Shown here: piece after piece, positions 1 through 51,681 of the stretch | How the letters are laid out: each line of letters starts with the position of its first letter | How positions within the stretch are numbered: position 1 is the stretch's first letter | Source: Schmidtea polychroa | Taxonomy: Eukaryota | Assembly: GCA_044892525.1 (NCBI GenBank) | Contig: CM097885.1 | Location: forward strand, 24,430,001-24,494,000 | Reading direction: 5' to 3' | DNA length: 64,000 nt | Translations under genes and position numbers: made by a program | The notes under the pieces: model-generated | The model's input: only the letters and a program-made list of their open reading frames with translations | Told to the model about the DNA's origin: nothing | Databases searched by the model: none

Positions 1-254
1 TGAGAATTGAAATTTTTTAATGAAAATTTTTATAAAATAATTTTTTAAGTTAATTTTTAATGGAAATTTTTATGAAATATTTTTCAATGGTAATTTTTAA
101 TGAAAATTTTAATGAATTATTTTTCAATGGTAATTTTTAATGGAAATTTTTATGAAATATTTTTCAATGATAATTTTAGATGGAAATTTTTAAGATAATT
201 TTTAATGAAAATTTTTATGAAATATTTTTCAAAGACAAATTTTAATAATAATTC

Positions 255-1410
255 AACAACAAACCAACAACTTAGTACCAACAACCAGTAACTTACGAAC
301 ATGTATTAACAACCAGATACCTACAACTAGTTACTAACAACCAGTTACCTGATACCAAGTACCTACAACTAGATACTAACAATATGTTACCAGATACCAA
401 GTACTTACAACTAGTTACTAACAATCAGTTACCTGCTACCTAGTACTTACAACTAGTTACTAACAACCAGTTACCTGCTACCAAGTACTTACAACTAGTT
501 ACTAACAACCAACTACTTACAACTAGTTACTAACAATCAGTTACCTGCTGCAAAGTACCTACCAAGTACTAACAATAAAAAACAATCAACCAACTAGCTA
601 CCACCTACCAAGCACTCAACCGTCAACAACCAGTTACTAAGCATTATTAACCAACTACTAAGTACCTACAACCAAAAACAACCAGCTATCAACTAGATAC
701 CAAGTACTTACAACCAACATCAACCAGGTACTAAGCATCATCAACTAACTACTAAGTACCTACAACCTACAACTAGATACTAACAACCAGTTACCTGCTA
801 CCAAGTACTTACAACTAGTTACTAACAACCAATACAACTAGGTACTAGATACCAAGTACTTACAACCAACATCAACCAGGTACTGAGCATTATCAACCAA
901 CTAAATACTAAGTACTAACAACCAACCAACTAGGTACTAGATACCAAGTACTCACAACCAACAACAACCAGGTACTAAGCAATAATTACCAACTACTAAG
1001 TACCTACAACCACCTACCCATTAACTAGCTACAACCAGCTAACAACTAACTACCAAGTACATACAACCAACAACAACCAAGTACTAAGCATTATTAACCA
1101 ACTACCAAGTACCTACAACTAGATACTAACAACCAAAAACATGCAACCAACTAGCTACCAAGTACTAACAACCAACAACAACCAGGTACTAAGCATTATA
1201 AACCAACTACTAAGTACCTACAACCAACTAGCTACCACCTACCAGGTACTAACAACTAAGCATTAATTACCTACAACTTGTTACTAACAACTAGATACCA
1301 AGTACATACAACCAACATCAACCAGGTACTAAGCATTATCAACCAAGTACTAACAACCAAGTAACTTACCTAGTACTAAGCACTGTCAACTAGATACCAA
1401 ACACTTACAA
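255..1410 (+). repeat. Complex strand-skewed C/A-rich satellite (modules ACAACTAGATACC, AAGTACTTAC, CAACCAGTTACC). Also at ~6870-7950, 13105-13656, 15590-17070, 46098-46625, and inverted at 27595-29560
   Basis: Shuffled short modules are visible directly; the strand is G-poor. Confidence 0.9.
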
Positions 1411-48900: not shown

Positions 48901-51681
48901 AATTTACAATAATTATTACTGTACAATATAGCTGACTAGGTCCCATTGAAAGATTAAATTTATCCATTCAATAAAATATATTTCTTCAAATGATCATTTT
49001 TACCGATATTCAACCGATTTAATTACTAATTAAAATCACCCGATAGATTTCTTTCAATAAAGATCAATTTTATTTAGTTGTTGTCGATGTTTTAAGTCCA
49101 TATTTCTAAACTTTTGTCATTCTCCGCCTAAATAAAGATAAAAATAATTTAAAGTTGATATCAATCCCATTTATCTGTAAAGTTTTCATCGTCAAAACCA
49201 AGTAAATCGATCATTATCCCTACTTAATAAAACATAAGTCTAAATTAATATACAATGGATTAATCACAACCTAATAAAACGATATAATTTCACATTATTA
49301 TTGATTCATAACTGACTAATGTATTGCAATTTCCTTAAAAAACATTGATATTTTACCAACATCACCCTTAAAAAATCATATATTCCCATCTTAACCCATT
49401 CCTCATTAAAGTCAATCGACTATATCTCCCTTACAATGATATATTCCCATCTTAACCCATCTCACATTAAATCTAACCGACTATATCCCCTTAAAAGATC
49501 ATATTTTCCCCATCTTAACCGATCTCTCATTAAATCTAACCAACAATATCCCATCTTAACCGATCTCTCACCAAATATTTCTACCCCCCTTTAAACATCT
49601 AACCGAATATATCCTTCAATTCTACCCACTTGAATCCTCCTTTAATTCAATTCAGTCTTAAAATCTTTAAAGAACTTCAAAAATATGACTTAATTGTTAT
49701 AGACACCAAATATTCTTCCATTGAAATAATTTAGTAGCTATGTAGTAAGAGTTCACTAAAAGATCAAAAATCAATATTTTCTACAAATATATACCATCAA
49801 ATACTGGAGATGATATATATTGATTGATCATAATTCTTCATCGATTCAGCCAATCATTTTCAAGCAATAACAGCAAACTAAATTTCAGTATATTCTACAA
49901 TCATTTTCAAGTAAATTTAAATTCCTTGTTAAAGTCAACTAGTTTCTTAGCTCATGTTTTTTAAAGTTCATCAATGAGTAAATATTCTTAGAAAATTATT
50001 GAAAAAATTATTTAGTGAAATATATTACAAACTTATCATTAAAAATTTATTCTATCACTTGAAATTAATTTTTATTTAAAAACTATTCAATAAAATACCA
50101 CTAATTATCAAGAAATTAATTAAATTTATCAATTAAATTTATCACCATTAAAACTTTTAATCAGTCAACATGAAATTCTTAGAAAATTGTTCAATATCCT
50201 CATAAAAATTTATCCTACCACTTGATTATTGTACAAACTCTAATTATTAACCTCATTAAAAATTAAAAATACATCCAATTATCAAGAAATTAATTAAATT
50301 TATCTTAGAACTAACTTTGAATTATTAAATATTCATTCAATAATCATGAAATCCACAAAAATAATAGAAATTTACAAAAATCAAAGAAATTCACAAAAAT
50401 GATAAAAATTCATGAAAATGATAGAAATTCACAAAAACGATAAAAATTCATAAAAATTATAGCAATTCGCAAAAATAATAGGAAATTCACGAAAATGATA
50501 GATATCCACAAAAATTACAGATATTCACAAAAATTACGGAAAATAATAGAAATCCGCAAAAATAATAGAAATTCACAAAAAAAAACGATAAAAATTCACA
50601 AAAAAGATAGAAATTCATGAAAATAATAGAAAATTACAAAAAATGATGGAAATTCACAAAAATGTTAGAAATTTATTTGAATAAAACTATCAACTCTAAA
50701 AATTATCAATACCTTAAACAACAAATTTGTCTAAATAATCTTTCAAATAAAAGCATTAAATACCTTTACGACTAATACCCTTGCGACATGTTGAATGTGA
50801 GTAGTACCCTTGTGAGCAATACCCATAGGGGGACAGAATATTTTGTCGGATAAACTCAGAGTATATATTAATTAACTCATTCAAATTTTTTCAATGAATT
50901 AGTCAAATTATCATAATTTCGATAAAAAATCTTATGTGGTAAGCAATTGTAAGATGAAAAGAGAAATATTCTTTAAACTTTGATAAAATTAATAATGAAG
51001 GTGGTAAGAATCTTCATTAAAGTGAGGAAATTATTCATTACTCGATGATAAATTCAAATGGGTGAAAATAATTGGTAGAATAATTCATTAATGGATCATT
51101 GAATGGGCATAGATAACATGAAGGTTGATAAGAATGGAAATATATTAATTGAATTTATTTTAAATTTAATAAAAAAAATCTTAAAAAAAATATTTGTGGG
51201 GAATAATTAATCAAAATCGGGGGATATTAGTGATTAAATAGTGGAAAATCGAGGGGATATTAGTGATTAATTAATGGAAAATAGAGAATCGGGGGTATAT
51301 AAGTGAGAAGGATATATAATTTAAACTATTTTATTACATAACAAACCGTGACTAGTTTATTACATAGCAAGCTGTGAATGGTATTTGAATAAGAAATATG
51401 GAATAGGTCTTTTTTTTAAATTTTCGACTAAAATAAATTCTAAAATAATAGCAAATTATTACTAAAATGTTTTAATTTGCATTATGTATTTCAAAAACAA
51501 TTATCATAAAAGATAATAATATATATATTACTCCTTTTATTCAAAATAAGTTGAATATTCAAATATAAGTCTTAGAAAATACAATCAAAATTAAAGTTGC
51601 GTAATAAGAAGTTGGAACAATTTGACCCCCCCGAGGGGGGGGGGGGGGGTAATTGTTCCAGGGCGCTACTAACTACCTACT

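Follow-up and report, generated by a model that had tools for sequence, protein, structure and literature searches.

The window, a 64,000-nucleotide stretch of DNA whose own numbering is used throughout, has a GC content of 20 to 37% per kilobase, and tandem repeats make up 40% of it. It contains three large elements, A, B, and C, all of which have ends of the AGT...ACT type. Chains of exact words, together with readings across the junctions, placed B inside A and A inside C (Table 1). The ends of A are of the AGTAGT//ACTACT type, and those of B and C follow an AGTAGG//CCTACT variant. Complete 6-bp target duplications flank A (CTGATA) and B (CTTTCG) on either side, and the corresponding empty sites are visible, that of A in unit 2 of C and that of B in the right arm of A. 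Without B, element A has a net length of 14,801 bp, with arms of 7,105 and 7,000 bp and a spacer of 696 bp. Element C occupies 19,240 bp of the window (1 to 13656 plus 46098 to 51681), and its left end and duplication lie beyond it; if the outer part of unit 2, or that of B, is taken as a model for the missing sequence, C would measure 20.4 to 21.0 kb.

The three elements are gene-less. The longest ATG-initiated frames are 82, 89, and 87 amino acids in A, B, and C, respectively, and a scan of the open reading frames found neither pPolB nor integrase genes in them (no ATG frame exceeded 89 amino acids). Capsid, protease, and packaging ATPase frames were likewise absent from A, B, and C. An Rfam search returned two matches, both to an SRP-like piece in the arms of A and both under the gathering score.

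Several other features lie to the right of C. The piece of an integrase gene adjoining its right end probably belongs to a repeat that received the C insertion. Element E has inverted, mirrored flanks without a direct duplication and forms the center of a palindrome, D (~52211 to 57612); a search for a duplication at the outer ends of D gave only matches within its AT-rich arm ends. About 7 kb from the end of C is the broken pPolB gene of F, a decayed Polinton, which matched PF03175 (E value, 1.2e-14) and was 60 to 67% identical to the best database proteins. The right end of F could be aligned to ends of the A and E types. In a shuffle test, its likeness to E scored 65 (shuffles reached at most 40), that to C was weak, and that to A was not significant. 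The window itself yielded no capsid gene. When a single fragment of the F polymerase was used as the query, no close relatives were recovered from viral or metagenome contigs, and an alignment query recovered 14 loci with distant relatives (29 to 39%) on contigs of 4.3 to 21.6 kb. Four of these loci were scanned with Pfam (26 frames), which revealed a jelly-roll capsid gene at two and an A32 ATPase gene at three.

A motif of ~100 bp, a candidate cis signal, is present five times per arm in A, twice per full unit and convergently in B and C, and also in the right end of F. Its 22-base core had 19 matches, compared with none in 100 shuffles. The orientation of the motif flips ~0.8 to 0.9 kb before the end of C, as it does in the right end of F, and seven flank comparisons within the monomer gave no long decayed inverted repeats beyond the motif itself. 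It had no match in Rfam and none in viral contigs; one metagenome match was attributed to chance, sharing no further likeness with the window. The motif is common to A, B, C, and the polymerase-bearing F of the same genome, and the likeness of their ends to that of F is uneven.

Table 1. Features of the 64,000-nucleotide window, in order of position
Feature	Position	Strand	Description
C unit 1, partial	1..5639	+	Starts within 13/40-bp satellite; mosaic, first ~3.1 kb of another variant
C unit 2	5640..11784	+	6,145 bp; one CTGATA (7416-7421) marks the empty site of A
C unit 3, first part	11785..13656	+	Ends with A's duplication CTGATA (13651-13656)
Element A	13657..46091	.	Palindromic; AGTAGT...ACTACT ends; CTGATA duplication
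A left arm	13657-13951 + 31586-38395		
B target duplication	13946-13951 + 31580-31585		CTTTCG
Element B	13952..31579	.	Palindromic; 17,628 bp; 295 bp inside A's left end
B inner arms	17031-21835 and 22828-27632		Identical
B spacer	~21869-22805		937 bp
A spacer	38396-39091		
A right arm	39092-46091		
C unit 3, second part	46098..51681	+	Passes the repeated unit; ~1 kb collinear with B and A (inner arm, spacer)
Copy of ~100-bp motif	50776..50877	-	Candidate cis signal
C right terminal repeat	51597..51681	-	85 bp; B-type end; C-run/G-run hairpin, z of -3.4 vs shuffles
rve-integrase gene, N-terminal piece	51717..51995	-	54% to P0121; PF00665; adjoins C's right end
E	54482..55369	.	888 bp; A-type Polinton ends; ~55-60-bp terminal repeat
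F pPolB gene, broken, several frames	58250..61406	+	Decayed Polinton F; protein-primed DNA polymerase B
F right end	62100..62236	-	Related to A/E-type end

A related unit in mirror image and in tandem

An earlier note on this DNA had described the last unit of C as collinear with the left arm of B and the start of its spacer, ending in a terminal repeat of ~85 bp, and alignment bore this out. That unit (11782 to 13656 plus 46098 to 51681; 7,459 bp), aligned end to end with the B sequence, gave 6,265 matches and 674 mismatches (90.3% over ungapped columns), with numerous indels in the satellites. Two nonsatellite blocks of the arm were 93 to 95% alike, and the 85-bp terminal repeat of C equaled the left end of B in 72 of 82 columns. 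The inner arm and spacer of A are homologous to the same unit (79 to 82% in two blocks), the outer part of A being different, and the spacer homology extends to position ~51594 of C, beside its terminal repeat. These alignments support the proposal that one related unit of ~7 to 8 kb has been built out in two ways, and the arm lengths of A agree with the claim that it doubles an arm of ~7 kb. Its extension, that all three elements fall between 15 and 20 kb, holds for B (17,628 bp), but A is just under that range and the completed C, at at least 20.4 kb, lies above it.

The turning points of A and B differ, and the left arms of both continue through the spacer in line with the last kilobase of C. 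The B spacer comprises at least three old repeats of ~270 bp that are 73 to 82% alike; C has one copy, 76 to 77% like these. Since the end of C is only ~76% like the spacer of B, it is not the direct parent of B. We regard it as plausible, and lean slightly to the view, that the monomer preceded the palindrome. The end of C may instead be a cut-down palindrome.

The description of B as the monomer plus its mirror image proved accurate for the inner arms, which show no difference in 4,805 positions, and failed toward the ends. There, 18 of the terminal 155 columns differ (11.6%), the arms are unequal in length (~7.9 and ~8.8 kb), and their outer satellites contain unequal numbers of copies. The arms of A differ at 4 of 2,589 positions in an outer tract and 5 of 2,905 in an inner tract, and by 5.1% in the middle. 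Neither A nor B is a single mirror image. A snap-back genome made by a single foldback would have arms identical from spacer to termini, from which both B (18 of 155 terminal columns) and A (its 5.1% middle) depart.

Arm divergence followed the order of nesting, with 0 differences in 4,805 positions for the inner arms of B and 9 in 5,494 for the outer and inner tracts of A (Fisher's exact test, P = 0.005). This order suggests that the arms became alike close in time to each insertion, while the element was being copied. The units of C differed at 12 of ~5,970 positions when a misregistered 30-bp satellite, with its 11 changes, was set aside, or at 23 of 6,144 with them, and the ages of A and C did not differ significantly (P = 0.67). 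The units of C are older than the insertion of A, since unit 2 carries the empty site of A. The joint between arm and spacer in A showed no outstanding microhomology.

C does, as the earlier note had it, repeat most of the monomer head to tail to at least 19.2 kb, in units of 6,145 bp. At the unit junction, a 19-bp satellite meets positions 74 to 76 of a B-type end through a 3-bp microhomology, ATT (11782 to 11784); this point lies slightly inward of the terminal C/G hairpin. The short right end of C extends to position 85 of an end of that type, so that both joints of C fall within a 12-bp stretch (74 to 85). A hairpin was found at all three B and C ends tested (z scores of -3.4 to -4.7); that of the left end of A was weak (z score of -2.6), and tests against shuffles showed no such fold at either end of E or at the end of F. 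Unit 1 of C is mosaic, with 1328 to 3100 differing by 5.1% from unit 2 and 3101 to 5626 by 0.2% from unit 3. In unit 2, three sites as far as 3767 carry the variant of unit 3, and an 8-bp indel (4913) and, further on, the site at 5558 follow unit 1. The mosaic structure of unit 1 and the unlike ends of B point to exchange among copies. A derivation of the outer part of C from the left or right type of B was rejected, the three variants being about equally distant.

The family is large and varied, as indicated by 109,198, 16,598, 17,415, and 1,028 contigs that matched 47000 to 52250 at a likeness of at least 85% in four runs from three studies; these counts are not copy numbers. All 30 bins of the interval were covered. 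Summed contig depth, likewise no measure of copy number, dropped about 10-fold or more at 51400 to 51751, and B-type spacers fall below the 85% cutoff. No contig among those listed bridges the short end of C, which carries no weight either way; two contigs extend 56 letters beyond 51681 without following C, consistent with an insertion boundary there. We found no look-alikes in other genomes and, among the matches listed, none to RNA.

Possible origins of the elements

On balance, we favor the idea that A, B, and C are gene-less Polinton-ended elements that have been copied and inserted by a helper Polinton and reshaped by template switches of the polymerase. This reading starts from what can be read directly in the window, namely, the ends, the 6-bp duplications of A and B, the nesting order, the homology of the units, and the positions of the junctions. 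It is further favored by the broken pPolB gene of F close to C, with its related end and the motif in common, by the hairpins at the B and C ends, and by the exchange among copies. The protein-primed polymerase of the helper would copy the elements, and its integrase would insert the products. Near the center, the polymerase may fold back on its own product and rewrite the second arm from the first; it may then jump to another family member inside a satellite. A foldback and a jump would give the identical inner arms and unlike ends of B, as well as the two nearly identical tracts of A around a 5%-divergent middle. In a second step, the polymerase would leave the 19-bp satellite and resume slightly inward of the terminal C/G hairpin, which would create the direct repeat of C. 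The arms would be matched at about the moment of insertion. A capsid acting as a size filter is a conceivable extra step on which we would not count, and the shapes can be explained without it.

A 1997 study of phi29 reportedly ascribed palindromic by-products to a template switch. Protein-primed replication in that phage is described as producing short palindromic DNAs when the single-stranded DNA-binding protein is missing (PMC2175359). Some observations run against polymerase switching as the mechanism. The same patterns can arise on the chromosome through conversion and unequal exchange, the hairpin is unevenly distributed (weak at the left end of A, absent from E and F), the arm-spacer joint of A has no outstanding microhomology, and the ages of A and C do not differ significantly. 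In the account of Galileo that we consulted, moreover, inverted repeats are extended without a polymerase of the element's own (PMC3573991).

The rival readings overlap, so that their probabilities do not sum to one. The strongest of them, which we consider possible rather than probable, makes the palindrome ancestral. The "monomer" of C would then have arisen by a deletion that removed most of one arm and left 85 bp of its end, and a free family of 7.5-kb monomers would never have existed. The repeats of the B spacer (73 to 82%) are far older than the split between the arms of B and C (93 to 95%), and C keeps one of them, as this reading would have it; E likewise combines a long end with one of ~60 bp, and the two kinds of junction in C coincide by the hairpin. 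However, in both A and B the left arm passes through the spacer collinearly with the last kilobase of C, despite their different turning points. The motif, moreover, flips ~0.8 to 0.9 kb before ~51594, as in the right end of F, though the flanks show no further inverted likeness.

Rearrangement on the chromosome after insertion is a rather unlikely source of the structures. Break repair and conversion would have extended the inverted repeats and produced the mosaics, unequal exchange would have built the array of C, and the lengths would be inherited from an autonomous ancestor or incidental. Such processes may explain unit 2 of C, whose left part follows unit 3 and whose right part follows unit 1, as unequal exchange predicts, and the arms of D mirror the DNA flanking E in a manner resembling a local inverted duplication. 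Repeat extension, internal tandem repeats, and chimeras are all described for Galileo (PMC3573991). However, the outer and inner tracts of A are equally diverged (4 of 2,589 and 5 of 2,905) and B is younger, which fits matching at insertion better than random conversion at a later date, and neither A nor B has lost a duplication at either end.

To about the same degree, we doubt that capsid length selection shaped the elements, a short unit spreading well only if doubled or padded to 75 to 105% of the helper length. This reading draws on the close parallel of adenovirus vectors, for which 15-kb genomes are reported to be packaged in dimeric form, direct or inverted, and those outside 75 to 105% to rearrange (PMC4189039). 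In one survey, intact vertebrate Mavericks vary by ~10% around ~17 kb (PMC8097293). On an assumed helper length of 17.5 kb, A reaches 85% and B 101%, and C less one unit (14.2 to 14.9 kb) would reach 81 to 85%. Padding would also fit the composition of the arms, ~5.0 to 5.2 kb of nonsatellite plus ~1.8 to 2.1 kb of satellite sequence in A and ~4.0 plus 3.9 to 4.8 kb in B (n = 2). The capsid and A32 ATPase genes at distant relatives of the F polymerase point the same way, and the ~100-bp motif is a candidate packaging signal. Against this stand the present length of C, at least 20.4 kb and hence at least 116% of the assumed 17.5 kb, and that of E, which has similar ends, though without a duplication, and which at 888 bp reaches only 5%. 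Doubling any unit of 7 to 9 kb gives 14 to 18 kb by arithmetic, movement within a cell requires no capsid, and Maverick particles had never been observed according to the survey cited above (PMC8097293). We hold it to be less likely still that these are natural gutless Polintons, which would have attained a packageable size as inverted dimers (A and B) or as direct dimers (C, its third unit having been added on the chromosome), in the manner of half-size adenovirus vectors.

An origin of the mirror and tandem structures as artifacts of long-read assembly is very improbable, since, despite the 100% identity of the inner arms of B and the 99.6 to 99.8% identity of the units of C, the 6-bp duplications are exact and have empty sister sites, the arms and units differ by substitutions and in satellite copy number, and the ends of B are 11.6% apart.

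Significance and comparison with known systems

Mobile Polintons without polB and inverted repeats of ~2 kb have already been published (10.1101/2025.02.07.637071), a Maverick expansion is reported in Dugesia (10.64898/2025.12.11.693146), and further Polinton literature is available (PMC6431247). Among the papers listed by searches of mainly openly available literature, none describes gene-less palindromic or tandem Polintons. What the window contributes is the direct-repeat sibling, C, of the palindromic family; adenovirus vectors would lead one to expect a direct repeat as the second product. These elements bear on two open issues, the formation of particles by animal Mavericks and their replication. 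The tracts over which arms match, together with the junctions, are a record of polymerase behavior. Because gene-less derivatives have no coding constraint, their lengths directly test a capsid size window. If they are indeed gutless Polintons, a histogram of those lengths would be a fossil record of the size window of the Maverick capsid and indirect evidence of particles. If the lengths prove flat, the family would still be a large and unusual class of repeats, but an ordinary transposon parasite.

With autonomous Polintons/Mavericks, as these are described, the elements share AGT-type ends, a 6-bp duplication, and terminal inverted repeats, and the lengths of A and B lie in the range of 13 to 25 kb (PMC8097293, PMC10748475). 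In contrast to them, A, B, and C are gene-less and half satellite, their arms measure 7 to 9 kb rather than 100 to 1,500 bp, and C, which has an 85-bp end, is arrayed head to tail. Gutless adenovirus vectors are likewise gene-less, keep only their ends, and carry noncoding filler, and half-size genomes occur as direct and inverted dimers (PMC4189039). Those vectors, however, are engineered and nonintegrating, and their packaging is demonstrated, whereas A, B, and C are known from sequence alone, and C is a partial array of at least three units that may be oversize.

The palindromic by-products of phi29 also duplicate one origin as a mirror image (PMC2175359). Those described are short and arose in vitro, whereas A and B are 15 to 18 kb long, are integrated, have a spacer, and have arms that match only in tracts. 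Galileo and Foldback of Drosophila are, like A and B, nonautonomous, with long, internally repetitive inverted repeats that recruit inner sequence and with chimeric copies (PMC3573991). As described there, they differ in belonging to the P-element transposase family, in their 7-bp duplication, in repeats of up to ~1.26 kb, and in lacking Polinton ends (PMC3573991). A and B have 6-bp duplications and Polinton-type ends and carry no transposase, which sets them outside the Foldback/Galileo group. Most likely, then, A, B, and C behave like helper-dependent derivatives of Polintons rather than like autonomous Polintons, snap-back genomes, or Foldback/Galileo elements.

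A motif shared by the elements and hairpins at their ends

A motif of about 100 bp recurs at 12 listed positions, and mirror copies exist besides these. The gene-less palindromes A and B, the head-to-tail array C and the decayed, polymerase-bearing Polinton F all retain it, despite ~20% divergence of A from B and C. We compared contigs from four sequencing runs (three studies) with 47000-52250 at a likeness of at least 85%, and the summed contig depth peaked at the bin holding the motif in all four. The motif is a candidate cis signal for replication or packaging.

Ends of the B/C type carry a strong hairpin, a C run opposite a G run, about 20 to 68 bases from the end. 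The same hairpin is weak at the left end of A and absent from the ends of F and of the mini-Polinton E.

Features and their window positions
Feature	Position	Strand	Remark
~100-bp motif	2296-2381, 8695-8776, 17858-17939, 21208-21309, 32700-32801, 32987-33099, 34446-34544, 36316-36409, 38139-38220, 47371-47473, 50776-50877, 61938-62039
B/C-type end hairpins	13972-14018, 31512-31558, 51613-51660
Metazoa_SRP weak match	34856-34954; 42632-42730	-; +	one per arm of A
rve-integrase gene start	51717-51995	-	adjoins right end of C
Palindrome D	52211-57612		arms ~2.3 kb; centre, 888-bp E
Decayed Polinton F	57676-62236		right end at 62236
Broken frames	62900-64000	-

Polinton F and other pieces

F comprises, in order, a 190-codon frame with cysteines, a broken protein-primed DNA polymerase B that includes an endonuclease-VII-like stretch, and the right end; no left end was found. 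Pfam gave no convincing match for the broken frames at the window's right edge, which, judged from their translation, give the impression of a non-LTR retroelement remnant. The rve-integrase piece (54% to P0121, 435 aa) is part of a repeated element, as seen in contigs. The Metazoa_SRP match (29.6 bits, E 0.00077) falls below the gathering value of 70.

The palindrome around E

The arms of D are 87.5% identical overall and locally up to 99%. Mirroring of E's flanks reaches its very ends; no duplication was found at the outer ends of D. A's outer arm resembles parts of both D and E. D has the look of an inverted duplication for which E served as the seed.
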